From an uncultured virus (IMG/VR IMGVR_UViG_3300037089_000135) (taxonomy: Duplodnaviria; Heunggongvirae; Uroviricota; Caudoviricetes), in the IMG/VR virus record IMGVR_UViG_3300037089_000135: a DNA stretch of 63,715 nucleotides; one strand, 5' to 3'. A model generated the notes under the pieces. That model had not been told where the DNA came from. It did no database searches and saw nothing but the letters and a program-made list of their open reading frames with translations. Shown in pieces: positions 1-59,382 of this stretch. Within the stretch, counting starts at the first letter, position 1. The number at the start of each line of letters is the position of its first letter. The translations under genes and the position numbers were made by a program.

Positions 1-899
1 CATCATCATATATTCTAACTTCTATATAATGTATATAATGATATTCTGAAGTATACCCTTCATCTACTTTGTCTTCTTCCAGGAATACAACTCTATATGA
101 ATCTTTATGCCATCCTTGTTTATTAAGATCAACCATAGATTCAAGTTTTTTCCTGAATGCCATTTCGACCGGCCCATAGACCGGAAGCTTCCCCTTTTTA
201 GGAGTGTTCCAAAATGCCATATTTATCACATCCTTTACATTTATATCCATATATATATGATACATGATACTTAGTTAATGTATTACTGTTATATACTCGA
301 TATATATATTTCTCCGGACTAGATGCACTAATTAAAATATACTTTTGAGAATGTATCTCCTGATATCTTTCGTTAATGCATATAATGAGGAGAATTAAAC
401 ATATTAATATTATAAACTAATGTTTAATATTTAATACATACCTCATTTATATCGCCCTTATTTCCATATCTATATGTACCGTGAATGCTGGAGGGTTACA
501 TTCATCACCATGATCAATTTCGACTTCCATATATTCCCTTTTCACTCCAGTTACACCTAACTCTTCTTTAATATAGTTCTTAATTGCGACTACAACTTCC
601 GCTTCAGTTAACACTATTTCCATTTATATCTCCACCGCTATCGTTTCCATGATAGTTATCATCATTGATATGCTGCTCGACAGCGGTTATAAATGTGCCA
701 GTCATCTCCAGATCGAACGTAGACTGGACAGAATGCTCAAGGATAAGGGCAAATACTAAGAAATCATCATATGTAAAAGGTTCTCCCTCAGCACCTTTCG
801 TAAACCACTCATGCCATTTATCCGGGTTCTTCAGCACCTCTTCTCTATGATCCCTTTCTACATCCATCGCAATCGTATGTACCTTAGCTGCTTGCATTT

Positions 900-10388: not shown

Positions 10389-10643
10389 CTACATACTACT
10401 CCTCGCGGCCTCGGCCATTTCGACATGAATTTCGAGGTGACATTTCGAATGCACCAGAGTTACATTCTCATCCGTATCAGGTCCACCTTGTGATACCGGA
10501 ATGATATGATGAGCTTCAATTAGTTTCCAGCTTTTCAAAGGCTCTCCGCACCTGGAGCACGTTGGATGGAAGTCCTTACGCAATTTTTCTTTTTTTATCC
10601 CTAGAAGTTCTTTCCATCTTCTCTGACGTTCACTAAGATACAT
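10389..10643 (-). CDS. small HNH endonuclease
   Basis: CxxC..HHIIP...GG...N....CH. Confidence 0.85.
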   Translation of the reverse strand: MYLSERQRRWKELLGIKKEKLRKDFHPTCSRCGEPLKSWKLIEAHHIIPVSQGGPDTDENVTLVHSKCHLEIHVEMAEAARSSM

Positions 10644-10884: not shown

Positions 10885-11247
10885 TTAATGGAACTCATCG
10901 ATGCACCAAAGCTCTGGAATATCATCACCAAGCGCCAGCATCAACCATTTAGCTACCAGTTGTCTATGGCAAAATTTGCCTGCCGGTTCATAGCAAAGTA
11001 ATACTGCATCGTGTCCAAGTTCCTCGGCTACTTGTCGGGGATCTAGCTTATCTAGGCATTCTTCATAATATCTCTTTTCGAATTCTTCTTTTGTCTTGAT
11101 TTTTCCAGTTCCATTCCATTCACAAAGTAATCTCGGACTCGGAGCCAACTTTGGATACCACCGGCCCTTCCAATTAGACGGCGGGTACCTGCATATTGCG
11201 ACTCCATTTGGCACATTTCCGTACCGTTTAAAAAAAGATGTCCTCAT
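10885..11247 (-). CDS. DUF488-family protein
   Basis: LAPS..LL, LLCYE....FCHR.LVAKWL. Confidence 0.8.
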   Translation of the reverse strand: MRTSFFKRYGNVPNGVAICRYPPSNWKGRWYPKLAPSPRLLCEWNGTGKIKTKEEFEKRYYEECLDKLDPRQVAEELGHDAVLLCYEPAGKFCHRQLVAKWLMLALGDDIPELWCIDEFH

Positions 11248-12580: not shown

Positions 12581-13735
12581 CTATCCCTTGATTACTGCCA
12601 GAGGTGTCAACTTTACCAGAGAGCCTACTAAATCAACCTGATTTGCCATTACCTCAGTGATATCTTTGTATGCGCTGCTTGCTTCATCCAGCTTATCAAC
12701 CGATCTCATATCATGGATAATGCCGAGGGCATCCAGTATTTCGATCTCTTTCTTTAGATCCAGGGTCCTCTTTGCTTCACCCCGACCCATCGTTCTTCCG
12801 GCCCCATGAGAACACGATTTAAAGCTCTGCTCATTTCCCCGGCCCTTAACTATGTAAGATGATGTACCTTGTGATCCTGGTATGACTCCAATTTGATCTC
12901 TATAAGCTGATGTAGCTCCTTTTCTGTGAATCCACATCATTTGTCCATACATCTCTTCCTGCCTAGCATAGTTATGATGAACATCGAATTCAGTCATTGC
13001 CTTTACATCTGGTATGATTGATTTCAATCCTTCTATAGCTTTCTGCATCATAAGCTCGCGGTTAGCCTTCGCGAAGTCTAGGCAATACATCATCTCATTG
13101 ATATATTCCCGGCCATATTCGCTAGTTACCGGCAAATAATCTAATTCCCAACTTGGATTTATCTGGACATCTGCATCTTTACCGTATTTAGTAGCTTCCT
13201 TTATGTAATATTCGGCTACCTTTTTGCCGAGGTTCCGGCTCCCGGAGTGAATCATAATCCAGATATGGCCGTCGTCTCCCCACTGTACTTCTATGAAGTG
13301 ATTTCCTCCTCCGAGAGTACCAACTTGATGCATTGCGCTGTCGTACTCTTGAGGTACTACATTCATTGCGCCGTATCCTTTGTATAGAGGAATCGCATTT
13401 ATATCTTTGCTGTGGGCGAATCCTACTGGCACATTAGCTTTGATATATTCAACTAACTTGATTAAATCCTCTCTGGATATATGAGGTAAGTTCGTTCGGA
13501 TCGCACGCATTCCGCAGCCGATATCTAATCCTACTGCTCCAGGGATAACTACGTTCCTGCATCCGATAACGCCGCCAATGGGCATTCCGTACCCCTGGTG
13601 ACAGTCTGCCATCATTGCTACATGATGCACCGTATACGGATGTAGGGCTAGGTGCATGGCCTGAGCCTTCGCACCGTCTTCCATATATTCAGCCCATAGC
13701 CAAATAGGGATTTTTTCAGTTTCAATCGTCTTCAT
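12581..13735 (-). CDS. rtcB: RtcB-family RNA ligase (3'-phosphate or cyclic phosphate to 5'-OH)
   Basis: DCHQGYGMPIG, DIGCG, GTLGGGNHFIE, HSGSR, HHN, HRKGAT, SHGAGR, DEA..AYK, terminal IKG; start set at MKTIE. Confidence 0.95.
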   Translation of the reverse strand: MKTIETEKIPIWLWAEYMEDGAKAQAMHLALHPYTVHHVAMMADCHQGYGMPIGGVIGCRNVVIPGAVGLDIGCGMRAIRTNLPHISREDLIKLVEYIKANVPVGFAHSKDINAIPLYKGYGAMNVVPQEYDSAMHQVGTLGGGNHFIEVQWGDDGHIWIMIHSGSRNLGKKVAEYYIKEATKYGKDADVQINPSWELDYLPVTSEYGREYINEMMYCLDFAKANRELMMQKAIEGLKSIIPDVKAMTEFDVHHNYARQEEMYGQMMWIHRKGATSAYRDQIGVIPGSQGTSSYIVKGRGNEQSFKSCSHGAGRTMGRGEAKRTLDLKKEIEILDALGIIHDMRSVDKLDEASSAYKDITEVMANQVDLVGSLVKLTPLAVIKG

Positions 13736-13736
13736 T

Positions 13737-14018
13737 TTACAATACCTCTTGAGATGTATATAGGATAGTTCCACAAGCCGGGTTCCTTGTATTTTCAGCT
13801 ATCAGCTCAATGGATGACATTTCGCGAGACGCACTAAATCCTATGCTGCATTGATCAAGGTAAGATTTGACCATCATGTAGGCTGCATCTGGATTTGTAG
13901 CTACGACGTAAGATACCTTTTGAGGATTATTTACGTCGTTTGTTCCTATAAAAGTTGTACCATCTTTTTTTACAAGAAGGGCGACAACTCTCCGCTTAGC
14001 GCAAGGGCCTTTTACCAT
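13737..14018 (-). CDS. hypothetical protein with a deaminase-like N-terminal fragment
   Basis: PCAKRRVVALLVKKDG..FIGTN resembles the start of dCMP deaminases; HAE and PCxxC absent. Confidence 0.45.
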   Translation of the reverse strand: MVKGPCAKRRVVALLVKKDGTTFIGTNDVNNPQKVSYVVATNPDAAYMMVKSYLDQCSIGFSASREMSSIELIAENTRNPACGTILYTSQEVL

Positions 14019-18789: not shown

Positions 18790-19545
18790 CTACAGTACAA
18801 TATTTACTGTGTTATCGTCGTTCTGGAACTTCTGGACTTTACCCTTTATACCATTCCAGGTGTCCAGGATTTCAGCGGGGGTGCCGAACTGAGTCAATTC
18901 AGTCAGATCAAAGACTGGCATTCCTGCGCCTTCGCCACTTAGATAAGTGACAAGTGCCTGCTCTTTTTCGGAAAACTCTGCCTTTTTGACGGTCTTCTCT
19001 CCAACGTGCGGCGTTAGGGTAGTTGGATTGATATGCATGTACTTCTTTCCTTCTTTACTCTCCTGCTCGACAACCACGGCATCAAACCATGCGCCAAGAG
19101 GCAAAGCATTAGAAAGGTTGAACTCTCCGCTTGATACTTCTCCTCCAGTCAACTTCTCTACGAAGTCATAGAGCGCCTTTTTCGGGCCGAAAGTCTCGGA
19201 TAGATAGAACTTTACGTCTTTCTTAAATTGCCACCCGGTGATAGTTTCAGTGAACTCCAGCTCTACGATATGAGATAGCTTCTCGATTGGTTCGCCGTTC
19301 GACCACTTCTTAGGTTCGGTATCGTTTACGATTTTTTGCTCTGCCTTTGACAGTTCGCTGTATTGCTTACCCTTAATTGACTGCGGAAGTGCATCACTAA
19401 AGTTGCCTACTACGCCTTCAGTAAGTGTGACTTTAGTTAACTCAAATGTTCTTGTCTCACCATCAATCATTTTGGGTGCGAAAGTCTTGTCGGATTTAAT
19501 CGGAAACGTTACCTTTAGTTGTGTTGGATTAATCTGTACTGCCAT
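18790..19545 (-). CDS. hypothetical protein, possibly ssDNA-binding
   Basis: Strong RBS, beta-rich N-terminal part, lies near the Sak4-like ATPase; function is inference only. Confidence 0.35.
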   Translation of the reverse strand: MAVQINPTQLKVTFPIKSDKTFAPKMIDGETRTFELTKVTLTEGVVGNFSDALPQSIKGKQYSELSKAEQKIVNDTEPKKWSNGEPIEKLSHIVELEFTETITGWQFKKDVKFYLSETFGPKKALYDFVEKLTGGEVSSGEFNLSNALPLGAWFDAVVVEQESKEGKKYMHINPTTLTPHVGEKTVKKAEFSEKEQALVTYLSGEGAGMPVFDLTELTQFGTPAEILDTWNGIKGKVQKFQNDDNTVNIVL

Positions 19546-20473
19546 TTATTTCATACTCCTTTAAATTACTATAAAATAGTTGTTCACAAACTCTATACCT
19601 AACTTGCTTTCCTTCTATTTAAATCTATCTATTTCTTGGATCAGTTTCGAGTGCTCTTAGTTCTCCTTCCAAACCTTCGATTCTTTCCTGTAATCGCAAT
19701 ACCGGCCATATCACGCGCCGGGTTATTTCTTCCTTTAGCTCCGGTGAATCCCATTCATCGCGAAATGTTTCTAGGTCTTGTATTAAATCACTTTTCTTAA
19801 GGAACTCTTCACCTGGAGTCAATCCTTTATATAGTGTTGACATATTTTAAGCACCTATCTTTTGTTCATGCCCACAATTAAGGCACCTTATTACTTTTGA
19901 ACTTACTGTAGATTTTTTCGCAATAATGTTAAAAGATCGTACACCGGCTCCATATTGAGCATCTAGTTCTGGATTTTTACATCTAGCTTCACATATATAA
20001 AACATCTAAGATTCTACCTCCTCATAAACGGTATCCTCTGGATCACCGTTACCTTCGCGCATATGTCGGGTAACTCCCTCTACAAATGCTATCCGGGTCT
20101 CATCTTCAGTTTCTTCTTTACACATTTGGATCAGTCCAAAATATATTTACTATTAGTCCTACCACTATAATACCAAAGAAAGCGCCAACTATCGCTTGAA
20201 TAACATCAGGGCTTAACATTGTAATTCACTCCGGTACATCTTTTTTATCCTTAAAATCATTCATATGAGATTCAAGTATTTCCGTGTGATGTTTAAGTTC
20301 GTTAAGCATCGAGGTTTGTGCATTTCTTAAATCTGCCCATGTATTAGATCTATTTGTAAATATTCTATCTATCTCATCTATATTCCATCTAATACGTCTC
20401 GCGAAATGTTGTAATCTTTCTTTATGTTCCTCGAATTCCGGCATAATGCAAACCTCCTATAAATAAAAATGTT

Positions 20474-20947
20474 AGTATGGTGTGTTGTTACACCAAATAG
20501 TCCATATTGTACTTGTGCTGGCCTATGAATGCGTCAGATATAGTACATCAAATCTCATCATCCACAGCGAAGTTGTGCCTCTCTTCGCGTCGGCCTTCGC
20601 GCCTCCAGTCCATGAGGATAGTTTAATTCCTCTCCATATTCACCGGGCAACGCCCCGCCTAAACCCCGATAAGATACACCTCAGTTTGGTGAGCTAATGA
20701 GTTTATCTAGGGACTATCCTACATGGATATCTAGCCTGCAAGGGTAGCGCAGGTGCCAGTATGCGAAGCATACCGCAGTTTCCTCATTTATTTCCTTCAC
20801 GTTTGCTCTTTGGGTCTTTCGTTATCTGGCTAGTACGTCAGGTCGCGAATTGTGAGTATCCTTCCGGATTCCCCGGACTCCTATTCTCACATCTGCATAC
20901 GACTAACTCTTTAAAGGATAGCTACTCCTAAGCCAACCTTCCATACT
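20474..20947 (-). ncRNA. large structured RNA containing a split mimic of 23S rRNA H43-H44 (GTPase-associated centre)
   Basis: 5' AGUAUGGAAGGUUGGCUUAGGAGUAGCUAUCCUUUAAAGAGU and 3' GGUGUAACAACACACCAUACU; terminal stem AGUAUGG/CCAUACU; insert closed by UAGUC/GACUA; oligo-U follows. Confidence 0.85.
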
Positions 20948-20951
20948 GGTT

Positions 20952-21100
20952 TTCATCTTTGACACGTTCTAATATATCGCACCGTGTAACCCCACATGTA
21001 GCGCATTAAGGGACGGATTTATGCCATATTCAGTACGACTTGCTGCAATCCGCTACCTGATTCGATACCTTGTCGCCGTGTCATAACTGTTGTTGATGAA
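20952..21100 (-). ncRNA. ~150-nt multi-stem structured RNA of unknown class
   Basis: Nested stems UUCAUC/GAUGAA, UGACACG/CGUGUCA, UAUCG/CGAUA, GUAGCG/CGCUAC. Confidence 0.6.
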
Positions 21101-21229
21101 TGACGCTATCCGGGAATCGAACCCGGTTTTTGACCCACCCGTTGCAACAGGTCGTTACGGCCAACGCATGAAGCCGCAAGCATCTCGCGCGATTTGTGGT
21201 AATGCTTGGAACGCACATGCTGATAGCGA
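21101..21229 (-). ncRNA. tRNA-like RNA (acceptor stem and T arm, non-canonical middle)
   Basis: CGCUAU/AUAGCG acceptor, CCGGG-UUCGAUU-CCCGG T arm, internal GCAUG/CAUGC and CAAGCAU/AUGCUUG stems. Confidence 0.7.
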
Positions 21230-21301
21230 AATGATGTATCGCCTCCTCTTGTTAATCTCAGAGCTTCTAACATCATTAAATATTATCTCTGACTGGAGGC
21301 A

Positions 21302-21381
21302 TGGCAAGTATGGGAATCGAACCCATTAAGGCTGCCCAATCGCTTTTGAGGCGATTCCTTTATCCAATTAGGTAACTAGCC
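21302..21381 (-). tRNA. tRNA-Leu(CAA)
   Basis: GGCUAGU/ACUUGCC-A acceptor (one U-U), D arm CCU/AGG with GG, AUCGC-CUCAAAA-GCGAU, long variable region, AUGGG-UUCGAUU-CCCAU. Confidence 0.85.
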
Positions 21382-21384
21382 AAA

Positions 21385-21455
21385 TGGAGCTACTCAGAGT
21401 CGGACTGAGATCACATGGTTCCAGGCCATGTAGGATACCGCTACCCTATAGCTCC
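21385..21455 (-). tRNA. atypical tRNA, nominal anticodon UGG (Pro)
   Basis: Cloverleaf GGAGCUA/UAGCUCC-A, CAUGG-CCUGGAA-CCAUG, CUCAG-UCCGACU-CUGAG; has C33 and a UCC T loop. Confidence 0.75.
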
Positions 21456-21459
21456 TGTT

Positions 21460-21615
21460 TGCTGAGGCCCGGAGTTGAACCGGGTTCGGAGGGAGTATAC
21501 CCGCCTTAATGTTCCGCCTAAGTTTTCAAGGGTGAACCTACGACTTGGAAGGAGGAAATTCACCTGGATGTAGACTTTTCTTTTTACCGGCGTACTTCGT
21601 TAATACTACCTCAGC
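21460..21615 (-). ncRNA. 156-nt tRNA-like RNA with enlarged anticodon region
   Basis: GCUGAGG/CCUCAGC-A acceptor, D-like GUAU/GUAC, CCCGG-UUCAACU-CCGGG T arm, internal GGUGAAUUU/AGGUUCACC hairpin. Confidence 0.75.
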
Positions 21616-21639
21616 ATAATACCTTATACACACTTAATC

Positions 21640-21653
21640 TATTTAAACTTTAC
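21640..21653 (-). promoter_or_regulatory. archaeal BRE/TATA promoter of the ncRNA array
   Basis: GTAAAG-TTTAAATA ending 25 nt upstream of the first tRNA-like G at 21615. Confidence 0.7.
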
Positions 21654-21831
21654 GCCTTCTCTTAAACTGATACTGCAACTGTCGTTCCGATCTGCTTTGT
21701 TATAATCTATACCGAGGAACTTCTTATATCGGCATATGCCAGTATCCTCAAATAGTTTATCCCACTTTTTGCAGTTACCACAAATATGAGCATCTGCCTT
21801 CAATACGAATGCTTCTGTTGCCATATCTCCT

Positions 21832-22941
21832 CTAACTGACCATTACATCTGCTTTAGTTTGCGCTTTTTGATTAACCTTTCGTACTGACTCTATATAGTC
21901 CGACTCCATAATATTTAAAGCTTCCGGGTCCTTTCTAAGTCGGATCATACCGGCCTCATTTATTACCGCTTTCAATTGGGCTCCATTCATCCCACCAGTT
22001 ATTCTTGCTATCATTGATGGATCAGGGATGTTTTGCTTTCCCTTCGTATGGATCTTGAGGATGTCTATTCTCGCGGCCTCATTTGGAAGGGGAATTTCGA
22101 TCAACCTATCAAACCGGCCCGGCCTGAGTATAGCGGGGTCCAGGATATCAATTCGGTTTGTTGCTGCGATAATTTTAATATTGCCTCTTGCTCTGAATCC
22201 ATCCATTTCTGCCAAGAGCTGCATCATGGTTCTGTTAACCTCCGCGCTTCCGGTTGTACCATCGTTAGTGCGGACGGCTGCAAGAGCATCAATCTCATCA
22301 ATGAATATGATGCATGGAGCTTTGTCGCGAGCCATCTGAAATACGTCGCGAACCATCTTTGCGCCTTCGCCTATGTATTTTTGCACTACTTCCGGTGCTG
22401 CTAAATGAATGAAGGATACGTTAGTGGCATTAGCTACGGCTTTAGCTAATAATGTCTTACCTGTTCCTGGAGGCCCATAGAGTAGAACACCCTTTGGCGG
22501 CTCAATTCCTAACCGGCTAAATCTCTCCGGGTATAGTAACGGAAGTTCAACGGCTTCCTTAAGCTCTATAATCTGTGAGTCCAGTCCTCCAATCTCGGAG
22601 AATTGCGCTTCCGGCTTTGATATCATTTCCATTACTCGGACTCTTGAATCACTTCCGGTTTCCAGAATGTCTATGATACCGAGGTCTGTATTTATAACAA
22701 CCATGCAACCTGGATGAATTTTATTCTTAATTGCTTCGTTATGACATTTCACGGCATACTCCATATTATTGCCATGCTGTCGTATTACAATATATTCTAA
22801 ACCTACATCAACCACATCCGCTACTAAGAACGGTGGATTTTGCAAAATTGCAAGCTTACCGAATTGCATCACGATTAGTTCTATCTTTTCCTTTGTAGAT
22901 AGTGCTTCTATATCAGTTAGCGTAGATTGATCAATTTCCAT
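21832..22941 (-). CDS. pan: proteasome-activating nucleotidase (PAN)-like AAA+ ATPase
   Basis: OB domain, IGGL..QI.ELKEAVELPL, GIEPPKGVLLYGPPGTGKT, KYIGEG, IFIDEID, EVNRTMMQLLAEMDGF, ATNR.D.LDPAILRPGRFDR. Confidence 0.93.
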   Translation of the reverse strand: MEIDQSTLTDIEALSTKEKIELIVMQFGKLAILQNPPFLVADVVDVGLEYIVIRQHGNNMEYAVKCHNEAIKNKIHPGCMVVINTDLGIIDILETGSDSRVRVMEMISKPEAQFSEIGGLDSQIIELKEAVELPLLYPERFSRLGIEPPKGVLLYGPPGTGKTLLAKAVANATNVSFIHLAAPEVVQKYIGEGAKMVRDVFQMARDKAPCIIFIDEIDALAAVRTNDGTTGSAEVNRTMMQLLAEMDGFRARGNIKIIAATNRIDILDPAILRPGRFDRLIEIPLPNEAARIDILKIHTKGKQNIPDPSMIARITGGMNGAQLKAVINEAGMIRLRKDPEALNIMESDYIESVRKVNQKAQTKADVMVS

Positions 22942-23755: not shown

Positions 23756-24217
23756 CTACAAGGTCTTCCATTTCTTTCCGTTACATATTTTACTTATATG
23801 TGGATAAGAAACTCCAAAGCTTTGCGCGATCTCTTTTAACAGATATCCATACATTCGCATTTCTTTTATTTTAATAATATTATCTTTATTTAATTTTACT
23901 GATCCATGCGCTTCTCCGCTATTATCGACGGCCCTTCCTTTAGTATACATATCATGTATATTATCTTTTTGCGTGCCTAAGAACAAATGATTTGGGTTGA
24001 CGCATTTCGGATTATCGCACCTATGACATACGATCATTCCATTTACAATTTCTGTAATATAAATTTCATATGAGAGGCGGTGGGCGAGAATTATCTTCCC
24101 GCCGTATTTGAATACCCCATATCCGTTATTACATGCGCCTTGCCAATTCCAGCATTTAGGTGTTTTCTGAAATTTGGATTCAAATCTTTGTAATATTACT
24201 GGACTTACAAGTTTCAT
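23756..24217 (-). CDS. HNH homing endonuclease (HNH_3-like) with HTH
   Basis: CWNW.G...GYG, AHRLSY, VCHRCDNPKCVNPNHL.LGT..DN. Confidence 0.9.
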   Translation of the reverse strand: MKLVSPVILQRFESKFQKTPKCWNWQGACNNGYGVFKYGGKIILAHRLSYEIYITEIVNGMIVCHRCDNPKCVNPNHLFLGTQKDNIHDMYTKGRAVDNSGEAHGSVKLNKDNIIKIKEMRMYGYLLKEIAQSFGVSYPHISKICNGKKWKTL

Positions 24218-24222
24218 GGTTT

Positions 24223-27036
24223 CTAACTGGATGCCTGACTATTTAAGGCTTTTCCTCTGACCGGGCATTCCGCCCCACAGCTTTCACAGAACTCGAATAG
24301 CCCAAATACTGTATCAACGCAGCCGTATATGATTCCATCTTTGTTATATACCTCATTCAATATCTCATCTTCGTCGTCTAATACTTCAATTCTAAACATC
24401 TTTTTCACTCTCCGGGTAATCTCATTCCTATAGCGATCTGACTTTCCATATCTTGAATAGCGATTCTCATCTTCTTGATATCGATCATTTTATGGTCTAC
24501 ATTTCTATATAGTTTCGCGATGTGATTCATATCGCTTTGTACTGAATCCTTTTGCCTTTCTATATTCTTTTTTAGTATTCCTATCTCTATTTGTAATGAG
24601 CTGTCATATACCGGCTTCTGAAATTCATCACTCATAAAGATCGCGAGGGTACAATCTCCATTAGGAGCTTCTTTCGCTCTTTGCTTATAGTGCTCATGTA
24701 TCCAACTATTCCAGCTCTTTTTCTTTCTCATACGTCTCACCAATATTCTGTGATCAAATAATTACCTTCTGGCAGAACATCATTATTTACCATATCTTGA
24801 AGTAGATATCGTGATATGCAACAATACTCACCTGTATCTCTAAATTCTTGTACTACCTCCGGGAATAGTAGCTCGTTTTTCTTTACTTCGTATAAGTGAT
24901 TACTATCGTTTGATACTTCTTCTGATGCAGCGAATTCAAAATCTTGATTATAAGTTTTTTTAACTAGATCATCGAATTCTGATGCATTTATTTTAAAAAT
25001 TGATATTTGCTCCATGAAAACCTCCTAAGATGGATCTACGTCGTCGCGATCTATCAATCTGCTCATGGCATCTTCTAATATCTCCATAATCTCACTACCT
25101 GCCTCATTCATATGCAGCGTATCGAGGATTTGAGTATGCATCCTGTCCAGGGCTTCATAAACATCCTGAGCACAATTTGCGTCTACGCAAAATCCTTCGA
25201 TTCCTAAAAAGTCATTTACCGGCATCAGAAATCAAATCCAAAATTAATCTTGATCTGAGCGCATAAGTCTTCGAATGCATTTCGGGACCCTTCCAGTATT
25301 GTAGATCCGCCAGATTGCATTACTCGAATTATATCACCACCAGATTGATCAGGGGTGATAATTACCATAGCTCGTACTTTTGATTTACCGTCATCTCCGA
25401 TACAATTATTAAATTTTATCATTTTCATTCCTCTGGTCTTTTATATCCATCTAGTTCGCGATACCCCAAATTGTTAAACCAATCTACACCAAATCTTTGT
25501 TTTAGTAACCAAATTTCGTCTTTTGTTAGATCTTCTGGTAATAATCCTCCTGTCATATTAAGCAGCAAATTATTCGTTTTATCAGTTAGGTCTATGTTTT
25601 TAAGGTTAACCACTTGCGTTCTTGTAGCTCTTGCAGCTCCAATCATTTTCATATCTGATGTCATTGTCACCTCAAAAAAGTTTTAATCCGGATGAATCTG
25701 ATTTATGAGATTCTCCAGAATATTTGGTATACTACGTTCGCCCTCGGCATTATCCGCTATGTCCATTAAATCATGTTCGGGGCCTTCATCCATCTTCCGG
25801 GCAGTTATTGCGACTTTTGTTGTATCCGGAATAACCTCACATGTTAGAATGAGGTCTTCTGCCTTATTTGCGATCTCCTCGCTTGATACCTTTATGAGTA
25901 CTCTTCTTCTTCTTCCGCTTACCGTTACATACTGTATTACTTCAACTTCATCAGGGTTTCTTGGATCACCATGAAATAGATCTTGGTCAAATTCCCGGCC
26001 ATCTTTTGCCCACTCTTGAATCGGTTCCTCATCGTGATTGAGGATTATATCAACGCCGCTATTGCTTTCCATTTACTATCTCCTAACTCATTTGGCTCGC
26101 GAGCACAAGTTTTTCTGCCAATGTCATTTCAGTATTATCTAATAGATACTGAAGTCCATCACTTTGCTTTGGATCAGTTATACCGGCTTTCGTCAGGTCT
26201 TCAATCATTTTGTCATACAATTCTTTCCCTCTTTTGAACGGTACATCAATTTTAACTGCTGCCATATATTCATTCTCCTTTATTAACTACTTATTATATT
26301 GACCTCTTATTTTAAACTTTTATTTCGTTCATTGATAATTGCACATAAAACATGATTAAAATTGAAATTTGGGCAAATGAAAGGATAAGGTGCTGATTTT
26401 AGCAACCTTTGCATCCTGGACAACTGAGCTTACGGATTTCTTTAGCATCTGTGATTTTCATTCTTAGTATGCTTAGCGCACATGTTCCGATTTGCCTTCG
26501 ATCATCGCACCCGGATAATGTACTATACTTGCATCGTGACGCATATAGGAATGCTCCGAGAGACATCACTTTTTGAAGTCTATGAAACTGCATGTGTGTG
26601 TATTGCTCTTTGAAATGAGCATCAAATACCTTTTGATACTTAGATTTATGGATTCTCATGTTTAGCACCTTATCTCATATAGTATGTCGCGCATTTTTCT
26701 GAGCTGATCCAGGGTATAGTTATCTGTATAGTTCCTGGACTGGAGGAAATCAGATAGTTCTTTTCTTTCAATTTTGTCGCGAATGTCCTGAGTCAAAGGC
26801 CCGATTCTCTGCCTGTAGTGGTCAACAGCGGTTCGCTCAGTAAGTAGATCCTTATTATATATCGCCTCTTTACCTTTTACTATTACCGCGATATTGCCGG
26901 AGGGTGTTATTCTTGTGACCTCACCGATAAAGGTGTCTCTTCTTCCAAGTCCACAATATACCGCTACTTCCATACCGGGCACCAGTCCGGCAACCCATTC
27001 GTCTCCATTTAGAATCATCATTCGAGTTTTCCTCAA
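24223..27036 (-). CDS. cluster of about ten small early hypothetical genes
   Basis: Tightly packed ORFs with GGAGG/GGTGA RBS. Confidence 0.55.
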
Positions 27037-27114: not shown

Positions 27115-27867
27115 ATGAAATATCTTGGATATGGATTTAATCGGATAACGGATAAGAATGCTATCCGAGGGACCCTTGATGTTTACATGATGCAGAAAGA
27201 TAAATTGGATTCTAAGTTCGTATCTTCTGTTTTCATAACATCCAAGAACGGTATATATGTATGCGTTAACGTATCGTCAGCGGTTACTACATACGATAAG
27301 TATGGAATCGAGCACAAGAAATATTCATTTGCGTGGTGCGATGAAAAACATGGGAGACCGTGCTTAACCGCGTGGCTTGATGATATTGGATATATCGAAA
27401 CCATGTACCCGGCCTTGGATAGATTCGACTACAAGAGGAATCCGGGAATGCCCAAACCATCAGATAATGTGTTGGAGATGCTTAAAGAGGGAGGATTTTA
27501 TGTGAAGCCTACTGACGAAGTGATAAATATAGCTAAAAAAATGGCTAATAAATCTACTATGAAATATAAACTTGCAGCGGTAATATATGATAATGATGGT
27601 AATATATTGGGAAGGGGATATAACAAAAGGTTGAAAGACAGATCCGGAAAACCGGCAACGGTTAAATTCGGAATACCTACGTTTTCCATTCATGCTGAAA
27701 TAGCATGTATTATGTGGGCTATTAAGAAGTTTGGTATTAACCAGATTACAAACCAAAATATATATATTCATAGATCGAATAACAAGATTGCAAAACCATG
27801 TGATTGCTGTCAAAGTGTAATTGACATGCTTAAATTACATATATACTATTCTAATGAGGTGAATTAA
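27115..27867 (+). CDS. cytidine/dCMP deaminase-fold protein with unknown N-terminal domain
   Basis: LAAVI..GRGYN, HAE, PCDCC Zn-binding motifs. Confidence 0.85.
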   Translation: MKYLGYGFNRITDKNAIRGTLDVYMMQKDKLDSKFVSSVFITSKNGIYVCVNVSSAVTTYDKYGIEHKKYSFAWCDEKHGRPCLTAWLDDIGYIETMYPALDRFDYKRNPGMPKPSDNVLEMLKEGGFYVKPTDEVINIAKKMANKSTMKYKLAAVIYDNDGNILGRGYNKRLKDRSGKPATVKFGIPTFSIHAEIACIMWAIKKFGINQITNQNIYIHRSNNKIAKPCDCCQSVIDMLKLHIYYSNEVN

Positions 27868-28544
27868 ATGGCACAAAAATCAACTAATAAGAAGCCGGGC
27901 TATAAGCCAAGGCGATCCAGATCTCCTAAAAAGGATATATCTACAAAAGATACTCGCGAATTCAAGTTAGCATTTACAATGAAGGAAAAAGGTCTTCATG
28001 ATACCATGAACATAGCCTTCGTCGCGAATGTCAAAACCAAGATGTATAATGGAATGTGGTTCGCGTGGGATGATTTTTATCTAGGTATCGGGGAATCAAT
28101 TCGCGAAGCTATGGCTGAATATACAGCGGATAGGTTAGGAGTTATAGGCTACATTGAGAGAGCAAACAATAAGGAGCTTTTCCATTTTGCTCAGAAGAAC
28201 AATGGCAATTCTGGATATCGTATCGAGAAAGAAGGTCCGGAGACTGATGCAGTATGAAAATAAGCGATGTTAAAAATCTATGGCAATCTGATGGATATAC
28301 CTTACATCTATTATTTTTGCATAGAGCCGAAAGCTCAATATGGTATCTATATGTTACTGAGTTTTGTTATGAGATGTATGAATATCGTAGGCACTTTGGA
28401 ATAATTACTGAAGTGGATGCAAAATCTGGAGATGTTATTAGATCCAGGGTTCTGGAGTATGATAAATCTTCATATTCACCGGCTGAAGAAATGAAGCATC
28501 AAGTATTTAATATCATAAATACTAAGTGGGGAATACTCAAATGA
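27868..28544 (+). CDS. two hypothetical proteins (27868..28257, 28254..28544)
   Basis: Coupled ORFs. Confidence 0.55.
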
Positions 28545-28837
28545 TGATAGCATTTGTAGCAAAGTCTGTTGAAAGTATTTGTGGTAATTGTGAGCATTGG
28601 TACAAAAATTTTGGAAGACAATCACTTTATGGAACTTGCGAAGTTGATGGCGATATTCAGCAATATGCTCATAATTGCTCTTGTGATATAGATGCATGGG
28701 GATAAATATGGGACAATTTACAGTGTATACGTTGTGGCGGGCCGATGAAGGCCCAATACCAGAGGGATGGACTGAAGTACCACCACCTACTAAAGATCAA
28801 TTAAGAAAATTCAAATAGAACTTGTACCCGATTAATT

Positions 28838-29581
28838 GTGGATGCGAAAATAATGGTATTGATTCAAGGGGATGAAAGACAAAAGCTTCTAGGGCGGGGA
28901 TGTTATGGACATATTCCTCATGTCCTCGGCTCCAGATTGGGCTCCGGGGATCACCACATTTCACCCGGACAGAGTGATATTTGCACCAAGAAGACAAGGG
29001 ACTCCAGGGACCTAGTTATAATCTCCGAGAAGCTCGATGGTAGCTCTGTAGCCGTCGCTATGCATGAAGGCTTGATATATGCCCTCACGCGCTCCGGGTA
29101 CCCGGCACATACCTCTAGGTGGCCTCAGCATCGATGGTTTGATAGATGGGTTCATGAAAGGGAGTATGTATTTGACTTCCTGGAGGAAGGTGAACGTGTT
29201 TGTGGTGAGTGGTTAGCTCAGGCCCACGGTACGAAATACGCCCTGGAGCATATACCCTTCGTACCTTTCGACATTTTGCGAGCTGGAGGACGGGCTTCAT
29301 ATGAGGAATTTAATACAAGGTTGCCTGAAATATTCCCTAGACCTTACATTTTGTCGATGGGATACCCCATGAGTATAGAAGAAATAGAAAAAAAGTTAGG
29401 CCCATATGGACATCATGGAGCTTTAGAAATGGCCGAGGGCGTGATTTTTAAGGTCGAAAGAGATGGCATTTTTGATTTTAATGCCAAATATGTTAGACCT
29501 AATAAAAAAGTAGGCCAATATCTCGGAGAAGATAAAGATCCTATATATAATTGGATGCCTGGAGGTGGAAGAAGTTGGTGA
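28838..29581 (+). CDS. ATP-dependent RNA ligase (Rnl2-like nucleotidyltransferase domain)
   Basis: Motifs I EKLDGS, III GEWL, IIIa FVPFDI, IV EGVIFK, V AKYV; no OB domain. Confidence 0.85.
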   Translation: MDAKIMVLIQGDERQKLLGRGCYGHIPHVLGSRLGSGDHHISPGQSDICTKKTRDSRDLVIISEKLDGSSVAVAMHEGLIYALTRSGYPAHTSRWPQHRWFDRWVHEREYVFDFLEEGERVCGEWLAQAHGTKYALEHIPFVPFDILRAGGRASYEEFNTRLPEIFPRPYILSMGYPMSIEEIEKKLGPYGHHGALEMAEGVIFKVERDGIFDFNAKYVRPNKKVGQYLGEDKDPIYNWMPGGGRSW

Positions 29582-30096
29582 ATATATTAATTTCAAAAGA
29601 TAAAATTGCACTCGTTGATGATATAGATAGCGATTTATTACAGTTTAAATGGTATGCTTCAAAAAGTGGTAAAAATTGCATATTGATTTATGCTGTACGA
29701 AGTATTTATATAGATGTGCATACAACTAAACATGTAAAAATGCATCGTACCATCATGGAACGGAAACTAGGTAGAACTCTATTAAAAGATGAATTGATAG
29801 ATCATATAAACCACGATGGATTAGATAATCGACGTAAAAACTTACGATTGGCATCTCATCTTGATAATGTTAGATATCATAGAAAAGGTGAATGTGCTAC
29901 ATCTAAATATATAGGAGTGTATTGGAGTAAGGATCATAATCGATGGGTATCCAGAATTCATGTAAATAAAAAAATAATCCATCTTGGATACTTTAGAAAT
30001 GAAGATGATGCTGCCATAGCTTATAATGAAGCGGCGGATAAATACTTTAAAAAATTCGCGAATTTGAATGATGTAGATTGTTATGGAAAAATTTGA
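29551..30096 (+). CDS. HNH-AP2 endonuclease
   Basis: MHR.IM, DHINHDGLDNRRKNLR, SKYIGV.W, LGYF..E..AA.AYN. Confidence 0.9.
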   Translation: MDAWRWKKLVNILISKDKIALVDDIDSDLLQFKWYASKSGKNCILIYAVRSIYIDVHTTKHVKMHRTIMERKLGRTLLKDELIDHINHDGLDNRRKNLRLASHLDNVRYHRKGECATSKYIGVYWSKDHNRWVSRIHVNKKIIHLGYFRNEDDAAIAYNEAADKYFKKFANLNDVDCYGKI

Positions 30097-47032: not shown

Positions 47033-47094
47033 TCTCCTATTATTTATTTATGCACTAAAAAGGTTATAAATAGGGAATATTCCCTATTTAATGT

Positions 47095-58890: not shown

Positions 58891-59382
58891 CTAAGTTTTA
58901 TTTATGCACGCAAATTCGCCATGATAGATTTTAGCTGCTTGATTATACGCATTTGCAGCATCTTTTTCTAATTTAAAATATCCTAGATAAATTCGCTTTC
59001 CTTTGATTCTTATTCTTGATTGCCACTGTTGTTTTCCTTTGTGCCATATGACTCCTTTATATATTGAAGTTTGATTTTCAGTTTTGTTAGGAGTTCTATT
59101 TTGGCAATTCTCATTTTTAGTGGCTAGTCTTAGATTAGATCTTTGATTATTTAGACCGTTATGATCTATATGATCAACAAATTCTCCAGGCATTAGTGTT
59201 CGTTTAAGTATTCGTTCTAATATCAATCTATGCATACGAACATGTTTATGTCCTTTACATGCATAAAATTGAATACCTTGTTTGATAGTAAACCATTTTA
59301 ATATAGATAAATCTATATCTATATCATCTATCATAGCTGTTTTGCTTTGCGTAAGTTTAATTTCAATCATCATACCCTCCAA
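58891..59382 (-). CDS. HNH-AP2 endonuclease
   Basis: MHRLI, VDHIDHNGLNNQRSNLR, YKGV.W, LGYF...AA.AYN. Confidence 0.9.
   Translation of the reverse strand: MEGMMIEIKLTQSKTAMIDDIDIDLSILKWFTIKQGIQFYACKGHKHVRMHRLILERILKRTLMPGEFVDHIDHNGLNNQRSNLRLATKNENCQNRTPNKTENQTSIYKGVIWHKGKQQWQSRIRIKGKRIYLGYFKLEKDAANAYNQAAKIYHGEFACINKT

Follow-up and report, generated by a model that had tools for sequence, protein, structure and literature searches.

The tRNA arrays of phages are commonly interpreted as a means of codon supply or as anti-defence tRNA sets. Leaders of ribosomal-protein mRNAs, such as the L10 leader, mimic rRNA sites, and they are cis-regulatory elements of cellular ribosomal-protein operons. 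The tRNA-like structures of mascRNA/MALAT1 serve as processing signals. The GOLLD and ROOL RNAs are large structured phage non-coding RNAs of unknown function, often near or containing tRNAs, and mimicry of rRNA is not described for them in the parts of the source drawn on here (PMC12286853). We analysed a 63,715-nt stretch of DNA from an uncultured virus of the Caudoviricetes (IMG/VR record IMGVR_UViG_3300037089_000135), hereafter called the window. A gap between its open reading frames (ORFs) encodes, on the minus strand and next to tRNAs, an RNA that almost certainly is a real, conserved structured RNA with the fold of the GTPase-associated centre (GAC) of 23S rRNA, that is, helices H42-H44.

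The mimic copies rRNA positions ~1054-1090 and 1091-1105 almost base for base. It keeps the H43 stem-loop, 1082:1086, G1087:C1102, the H44 hairpin, the covarying pair 1058:1080 and the triple of 1072 with 1092:1099. Unlike the rRNA site, which lies within a 2.9-kb rRNA, the mimic stands alone on its own closing helix, bears an arm of 74-441 nt after position 1090, and is virus-encoded within tRNA arrays. Its consensus, the window included, has A in place of U1101, and the window member has in addition G1069, U1072 and U1076. The 58-mer bound by uL11, which we take to be E. coli positions 1051-1108, covers the top of H42, H43 and H44. Like the ribosomal-protein leaders, the mimic is an off-ribosome RNA imitating a ribosomal-protein site on 23S rRNA, but it belongs to viral tRNA arrays, appears to be processed and stable, and has no match to any Rfam leader model. 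As in mascRNA/MALAT1, the end of a neighbouring long RNA seems to be set by a tRNA-shaped element; in the window, by contrast, this element is on the 5' side of the RNA that is released, at the point where RNase Z or RNase P would cut. The window RNA has no match to the Rfam models of GOLLD and ROOL.

A split copy of the GTPase-associated centre in viral tRNA arrays

The original prediction, made from the letters of the window, had described the gap as an operon of non-coding RNAs whose last module was a GAC mimic followed by an oligo-U tract. Both elements were found, the mimic as a much larger, split element of ~474 nt instead of a short terminal module. The order of its parts is closing helix (H42-like), H43, the junction AUCNUUUAAAGAGU, the insert-bearing helix, H44 and the return strand of the closing helix.

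20474..20947, minus strand: split GAC mimic (copy of 23S H42-H44), closed by a 7-bp helix (20947-20941 / 20480-20474)
20894..20939, minus strand: H43 (1067-loop hairpin) and 1082-1088 junction, matching Rfam LSU_rRNA_bacteria positions 1098-1144; G1062 is 20934
20498..20905, minus strand: 408-nt insert interrupting the H44 5' strand, with the 5-bp helix UAGUC (20905-20901) / GACUA (20502-20498) at its base
20482..20493, minus strand: H44 hairpin (20493-20484: G1091-C1100, U1092-A1099, loop GUAACA), with C1102 pairing to G1087 (20909)
20461..20470, minus strand: oligo-U tract AUUUUUAUUU, read from the sequence, containing the mapped RNA 3' end

A degenerate pattern of the H43 core was run over IMG/VR and gave 86 stretches, and 80 loci were compared. 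All-against-all blastn of the 80 loci found no kb-scale 23S similarity common to them; therefore, the loci are not rRNA operons. The sole locus that continued as true 23S was L152. The H44 motif UUUGGYGUANNARCACAC, which was not part of the search pattern, occurred downstream in 53 of 62 rows, where our own arithmetic gives a chance expectation of ~8e-4 per locus. The resulting family set comprised 59 distinct split copies, namely 58 loci and the window. Pair 1058:1080 was Watson-Crick in all 59 copies and occurred as all four pair types. Position 1072 tracked the pair 1092:1099, being C with C:G in 46 copies and U with U:A in 12, with one exception; we take this to be the known tertiary base triple of the rRNA GAC. 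The closing helix had a median of 8 contiguous bp among the 59 copies compared with 3 in mismatched-locus controls, and 53 of them used the same register of this helix (-7,+13).

To quantify covariation, the 31 shortest members were aligned with MAFFT (alignment A2) and scored against a 23-pair structure. In this alignment, 93.7% of the cells were paired, compared with 69.9% in shuffles, and the covariation score of 0.651 stood against 0.190 for shuffled alignments (0/500 reached it) and 0.10-0.15 with slid partners. Compensatory changes were found in 15 of the 23 pairs, including all 8 pairs of the closing helix and all 5 pairs at the base of the insert. The same 31 members were used to build a covariance model (R1). 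The loops at 1067 and 1093-1098 are retained across the family. The insert is conserved neither in sequence nor in length, and some subfamilies of A2 share insert motifs.

The window member follows the family in both halves. Its 5' half carries the core GGCUUAGRAGYAGCY and then AUCNUUUAAAGAGU (20939-20906), and its 3' half carries the H44 motif at 20497-20480, 441 nt past G1062, the longest G1062-to-G1091 spacing of the family (otherwise 74-367 nt). The insert accounts for 408 of the ~474 nt. The pair G1087 (20909):C1102 (20482) is present, the triple is in the U/U:A state, and the 7-bp closing helix (-7,+13) and the 5-bp insert-base helix (+29,-5) are both at the consensus registers. The Rfam LSU match to the H43 region scored 15.5 bits (E 0.0032 in a 131-nt search). 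Each half was also matched by R1, with no further match in the 63.7 kb. A true LSU rRNA gene or fragment (RF02541/RF02540) does not fit the spacing of 441 nt versus 29 nt in 20 true rRNAs, and no LSU match in the window reached the gathering score. Besides the spacing, the window member is distinguished by an extra 147-nt domain and by a tRNA-like unit, not a tRNA, upstream. A 35-nt hairpin inside the insert (20531-20565, minus strand) has a C-box-like GAUGAUGA and a D-box-like CUGA, and matched archaeal C/D-box sRNA models weakly (E 5-10); it is a lead only and may be a kink-turn.

The family lies nearly always within tRNA arrays. Flanking tRNAs in the 58 loci were on the strand of the mimic in 264 of 264 cases and never on the opposite strand, and the window has two tRNAs and two tRNA-like units upstream of the mimic on the same strand. 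In 17 of 37 loci, no more than 15 nt separate an upstream tRNA from the start of the closing helix, and in 17 of 35 the next tRNA begins no more than 15 nt downstream. The family spans many phage lineages. Cultured carriers include Pseudomonas phages pf16, Astolliot, Milchi and UNO-G1W1, Paenibacillus phage Pd_22F and Aeromonas phage 4_4572, as well as jumbo phages of Erwinia, Serratia, Cronobacter, Pectobacterium, Xanthomonas and Yersinia. In Pseudomonas putida phage pf16, the element sits unannotated between tRNA-Asn and tRNA-Pro and matched R1 as one unit with 107.5 bits. The matches listed include 30 full-length cultured-phage records (20 distinct phages), 28 of them without any feature under the match and 2 with a "hypothetical protein".

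Rfam at gathering score identified only tRNAs in 20 family loci (84 of 84 matches). The non-coding RNA of the window, searched against Rfam 15, likewise gave nothing beyond tRNA at gathering score and sub-threshold noise at E up to 10. Full-text literature searches, in which listings and abstracts were judged, found no description of a split GAC-mimic RNA. The family is thus absent from Rfam 15 and from the searched literature. A metagenome scan for the U1076 variant returned mostly true rRNAs and ~11 mimics, none of which was a close relative of the window. A genome scan with the 3' motif gave mostly chance matches, since 114 of 120 lacked an upstream H43 motif, including the archaeal-labelled L231, L238 and L248. 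In the mimics of an Acidimicrobiales metagenome-assembled genome (MAG; L240), of a Pseudobdellovibrionaceae MAG (L263) and of L312, UUUAAAGAG is replaced by GCUAAGGAG or AUCUAAGGAG; from these replacements, the mimic may track lineage-specific rRNA variants.

A probable 633-nt RNA and its transcription unit

For RNA evidence, Logan contigs of four metatranscriptomes were compared with positions 19500-22500 of the window. Since genes cannot be ranked by contig depth, no use was made of depth differences relative to the flanking genes, and uncovered parts were counted as no evidence. All four metatranscriptomes had contigs inside 20466-21098, and the DNA stretch itself is present in peat metagenomes and in seven RNA runs.

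X13 RNA contigs: 20500-20705, 20757-20990
X14 RNA contigs: 20466-20570, 20637-21098
X15 RNA contig: 20673-21033
X17 RNA contigs: 20677-20852, 20829-21087

One of the X14 contigs (record 8; 567 nt, depth 20.1) runs through 20637-21098 and then continues with 20466-20570, forming a back-joint of 633 nt with a 2-nt ambiguity. We read this joint as the termini of a discrete 633-nt RNA composed of domain F and the mimic, because both ends sit where processing would place them. The 5' end (21098-21100) is 1-3 nt past the discriminator (21102) of the tRNA-like unit E, and the 3' end (20466-20468) lies within the oligo-U tract, just past the closing helix. In the minimum free energy (MFE) fold, the two ends come together in a single junction formed by the F helix and the closing helix. 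A discrete species with these ends is probable, and its circularity in vivo has somewhat less than an even chance. End mapping in metatranscriptomes had been put forward as a check on the locus, and it yielded contigs in 4/4 data sets and both ends from one contig. The idea that tRNA-shaped units act as processing punctuation also gained support, from the distance between unit E and the 5' end and from the short distances to neighbouring tRNAs across the family. The features of the transcription unit are as follows.

20466..21100, minus strand: 633-nt RNA, 5' end 21098-21100, 3' end 20466-20468, head-to-tail joint in one contig
20952..21098, minus strand: domain F, the 5' domain of the 633-nt RNA, with MFE closure UCAUC/GAUGA; no known family
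21102..21229, minus strand: tRNA-like unit E, 7-bp acceptor-type helix and perfect T arm CCGGG-UUCGAUU-CCCGG; remainder expanded and aberrant
21241..21300, minus strand: 60-nt hairpin spacer (GCCUCC...GGAGGC), MFE -19.6 kcal/mol, z -4.83
21301..21382, minus strand: tRNA-Leu(CAA), found by ARAGORN and Rfam (52.1 bits), with a long variable arm
21385..21455, minus strand: tRNA-Pro(UGG), found by ARAGORN and Rfam (55.2 bits), atypical
21459..21616, minus strand: tRNA-like unit A with acceptor stem, D arm without G18G19 and T arm; ~76 nt inserted in the anticodon region
21640..21647, minus strand: TTTAAATA motif, its end 25 nt before the first tRNA-like unit; candidate promoter

The minus strand of 20445-21638 has no sense ORF of at least 60 aa, as had been claimed, the longest having 56 aa. 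The gap is bordered by a 61-aa ORF ending at 21639 and a 72-aa ORF starting at 20444, and none of its small ORFs on either strand, including antisense ORFs of 71 and 79 aa, has a Pfam match. The evidence supports a polycistronic, tRNA-array-type non-coding transcription unit on the minus strand, and with it the original reading of a non-coding locus in which one unit mimics the ribosomal GAC.

Most of the modules first proposed from the sequence alone were recovered as well. The two tRNAs at 21455-21385 and 21382-21301 were the only units that reached the RF00005 gathering score or the ARAGORN default; units A and E failed both. The tRNA-Pro(UGG) is atypical, as anticipated, with C33 and C55 in place of the near-universal U33 and U55 in the Rfam alignment. 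Unit A (156-158 nt, acceptor stem of 7-8 bp, folding z -2.5) was missed by default ARAGORN and by Rfam, and ARAGORN with relaxed thresholds called it tRNA-Leu(UAA) with a 76-nt insertion. Unit E (~128 nt, z -1.1) was likewise seen by ARAGORN at relaxed thresholds only and gave a weak Rfam match to mascRNA-menRNA (E 3.4; 17 bits versus a gathering score of 42.5); it is likely a processing signal. For the 60-nt hairpin, 0/200 shuffles were equally stable. The "150-nt multi-stem RNA" corresponds to domain F (21098-20952), which has no Rfam match and a z of -1.2 and finds support as a part of the 633-nt RNA, not as a module of its own. A self-cleaving ribozyme, HDV-like or other, was considered for domain F and rejected, with no Rfam match and no obvious fit. 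We also dismissed as noise a tmRNA call at relaxed ARAGORN settings, and discarded ARAGORN intron-mode counts on tRNA arrays because this mode mostly fuses neighbouring tRNAs. A 245-kb phage contig that also bears a GAC mimic (L114) contains a tRNA-Val(AAC) at 23-176 (minus strand) with an 81-nt insertion between positions 33 and 34, scored by Rfam as one full-length tRNA (52.6 bits); this insertion, perhaps an intron or a mobile insert, resembles that of unit A in size and site.

A TATA box had been proposed as the start of the transcription unit. The motif TTTAAATA is indeed present at 21647-21640, and its role as a promoter was not confirmed. One RNA contig (21522-21671) extends across the proposed start (21616), which means that the motif is not the sole source of the transcript, unless the contig represents DNA carry-over, and a simple scan for sigma-70 promoters was at chance level. 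A further RNA contig, 21469-21603, is colinear with the DNA, with the insertion of unit A present and unspliced. TTTAAATA(G)-like motifs recur on the coding strand in the intergenic gaps at ~19546-19624, 26266-26398 and 47033-47094, and may constitute a virus-specific or archaeal-type promoter element.

RNA ligases, neighbouring genes and the nearest relative

The gene content of the window, with an HK97-type capsid protein, tail sheath, baseplate J, tape measure and D5-like primase-helicase, is that of a tailed virus. Pfam scans of the window ORFs confirmed RtcB, an RNA ligase (PF09414) and a deaminase, all three named in the original prediction; the ASCH protein named with them was not recovered, its domain being absent from the Pfam scans of 103 queries (a few repeats included). 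The array had been thought to be coupled to these ligases, and co-occurrence in relatives was named as the test. Of 50 mimic-bearing viral records, one had RtcB (PF01139), and none of the 15 that were at least 90% complete did. PF09414 was above the cut-off in 13 of the 50 and, at E 0.001 or better, in 6 of the 15 more complete ones. The nearest relative of the virus, which we found through the IMG/VR neighbours of its AAA protein (G001; contig L001), has RtcB and lacks the mimic. General coupling was thus not borne out. In this one virus, the head-to-tail joint makes a role for a ligase in joining the RNA ends conceivable. RNase Z-type cleavage and transcript 3' ends give 5'-phosphate and 3'-OH, the substrate of ATP-dependent ligases, and RtcB requires 5'-OH and a 3'-phosphate or cyclic phosphate.

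G001 shares 16 of the 123 window ORFs of at least 80 aa (both strands) at E 1e-5 or better, two of which are antisense frames over the ATPase gene. Its RtcB is 57.6% identical to that of the window and its AAA ATPase 58%, and it has a tRNA array; no similarity to the 1.2-kb region of the window was found in it. INPHARED blastn with this region gave no relatives either. The genes for DUF488 (10885-11247), RtcB (12581-13774) and a single-domain CDC48-like AAA ATPase (21832-22941), all on the minus strand of the window, are kept in G001, where they cluster beside the tRNA array at 23.8-27.4 kb. The window has a plus-strand island (27115-30096) with inverted GC skew, in a genome that otherwise uses the minus strand; besides two unknown ORFs, it encodes the deaminase, an HNH-AP2 homing endonuclease and the RNA ligase (PF09414). 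Altogether, four HNH endonuclease genes are present, at 10389-10643 (minus), 23756-24217 (minus), 29551-30096 (plus) and 58891-59382 (minus); two have AP2 domains, and one adjoins the capsid gene.

Proposed mechanism, rival explanations and meaning

We propose that transcription enters the unit at least partly from upstream and that the transcript is cleaved at its tRNAs and tRNA-like units, which keep the acceptor/T-arm minihelix recognised by RNase P and RNase Z; processing by these enzymes is what the arrangement of the units suggests. The products would be tRNA-Pro(UGG), tRNA-Leu(CAA), two tRNA-like RNAs, the hairpin and the 633-nt RNA, the last made up of domain F followed by an enlarged representative of the widespread viral RNA family. 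In this representative, the 5' and 3' ends are predicted to fold together into a self-closed copy of 23S H42-H44, with the variable arm leaving from H44, and this would reproduce the place where uL11, uL10, thiostrepton and translation GTPases bind. The termini were joined head to tail in RNA, and the molecule is perhaps circular. Off the ribosome, the RNA would act as a free-standing GAC copy that binds uL11, perhaps the uL10 stalk base, or another GAC-recognising factor. We consider this the best explanation overall, with a probability of roughly 0.55, the free-standing GAC copy included as a step that we infer. Its prediction that the RNA works by binding a GAC-recognising protein has, taken separately, about an even chance. 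A more specific version is tentative and on balance doubtful: RNase Z-like cleavage and 3'-end formation would free the 633-nt RNA, and the viral PF09414 ligase or RtcB would then circularise it, resulting in an exonuclease-proof copy of the site for uL11 and GTPase factors.

Several observations weigh against this explanation. The search pattern itself imposed part of the H43 conservation, which does not apply to the 3' half or to the two covarying helices. The window departs from both the family and the rRNA consensus at A1069G, C1072U and C1076U. Each of the two R1 matches in the window (20948-20745, 39.3 bits, E 6.5e-9; 20641-20473, 23.6 bits, E 8.3e-5) combines one true half with a spurious partner, as the 441-nt spacing exceeds the span of the model. 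Units A and E and domain F fold marginally better than shuffles (z -1.1 to -2.5), and no search made found homologues of units A, E and F or of the hairpin. G001 lacks the mimic, in a record 80% complete. On the RNA side, Logan contigs reveal neither strand nor ends directly, and carry-over of DNA into the RNA libraries is possible. The joint was seen in one contig of one run, and it may represent a true circle, template switching by reverse transcriptase at natural ends (2-nt UU overlap) or a tandem DNA variant, all three of which fit the contig.

Among the rival explanations, a decoy substrate is the most serious, although unlikely by our estimate. The RNA would absorb an enzyme that attacks the GAC, for example an ADP-ribosyltransferase, nuclease or methyltransferase of host defence or a competitor, and thereby spare the ribosomes. 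The GAC is a proven toxin target: in the account drawn on here (PMC8661411), Tre23 ADP-ribosylates H44 nucleotides 1095-1098 and blocks the GTPase of EF-G. Because the GAC is a known battleground in this sense, the enzyme decoy is the main rival to a simple sponge for ribosomal proteins or factors, and it is compatible with our best explanation. The 1067 and 1093-1098 loops are kept in the family, and the position among phage tRNAs parallels that of phage tRNAs tied to escape from tRNA-cleaving defences, as far as the portion of PMC13096335 relied on here goes. Tre23 is, however, an interbacterial toxin and not a phage defence, and the literature searched contained no GAC-directed phage-defence system. 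In a second rival, the GAC-like ends would be a structural clamp, a very stable closing module that shields and presents a functional insert much like a tRNA scaffold. The fixed point at which the long insert leaves (74-441 nt spacing; 408 of ~474 nt in the window) and the motifs shared by some subfamilies fit this idea, which we nevertheless regard as improbable: selection is visible on the mimic, with its conserved GAC core and tertiary triple, and not on a payload that is conserved neither in sequence nor in length. Least credible, and disfavoured, is a functionless relic of captured or decaying host rRNA and tRNA genes. Such a relic would account for the rRNA similarity, for two tRNA-like units that look like pseudogenes and for a tRNA-Pro without U33 and U55, but it would not retain compensatory changes in 15 of 23 pairs across 31 diverse viruses, nor a fixed insertion point, a covarying closing helix and strict co-orientation with tRNAs, and RNA was found in 4/4 metatranscriptomes examined.

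Archaeal-style processing, slightly less probable still than the clamp, changes the host and the enzymes. In this scenario, the host is an archaeon, unit A is a tRNA-Leu with an intron, and the 633-nt circle is cut by the splicing endonuclease at bulge-helix-bulge (BHB) motifs and sealed by the viral RtcB, like introns of archaeal pre-rRNA and tRNA. The sharing of 16 ORFs, RtcB among them, with G001 points this way, as does the tRNA-Thr(UGU) of G001, whose 36-37-nt intron at 37/38 folds at MFE into a near-canonical helix-bulge-helix-bulge-helix, with 5 bp and then 4 bp and bulges of 3 and 4 nt, a splicing motif of archaeal type. (This tRNA is at L001:11684-11792, minus strand, between tRNA-Cys and tRNA-Ser and 2.7 kb from the G001 RtcB.) The upstream AAA ATPase has its best cellular matches in archaeal CDC48, TTTAAATA lies at archaeal TATA distance, and 4 of the 6 true rRNAs tested that carry U1076 are archaeal. 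Archaeal circular RNAs made by EndA together with RtcB or Rnl3 ligases, some without a BHB, are described in the part of PMC12558985 used here. Inspection and folding, however, could not build a BHB (3-4-3) at 21098-21100 / 20466-20468 or at the borders of the insertion in unit A, and the RNA contig over unit A is unspliced. EndA was not found in G001, nor a splicing-endonuclease family in the Pfam scans of the window ORFs, and the window RtcB is a short form whose only named relatives are from Bacteroidales MAGs. None of the six genome-borne mimics with an upstream H43 motif is in an archaeal-labelled contig, and five have bacterial titles; all cultured carriers of the family are bacteriophages. 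The nearest cultured relatives of the capsid are bacteriophages as well (~33% identity), on the side of a bacterial host. Shine-Dalgarno-like motifs (before 49 of 90 ORFs) and look-ups in the capsid-protein atlas and the PDB were uninformative on this point. Evidence on the host domain, archaeon or bacterium, thus stands on both sides.

The locus places these arrays in a different light. Besides tRNAs, phage tRNA arrays harbour a conserved RNA in which a functional centre of the ribosome, tertiary triple included, is rebuilt outside the ribosome. The head-to-tail joint makes it testable whether such RNAs are circular and what purpose the RNA ligases of large phages serve. The circular form, if true, would be a first among the non-coding RNAs of tailed viruses and would give viruses a novel means of interfering with the translation machinery or of protecting it. 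If the RNA binds uL11 or uL10, or diverts GAC-directed enzymes, it would found a new class of viral translation manipulators and serve as a natural tool in studies of the GTPase centre.

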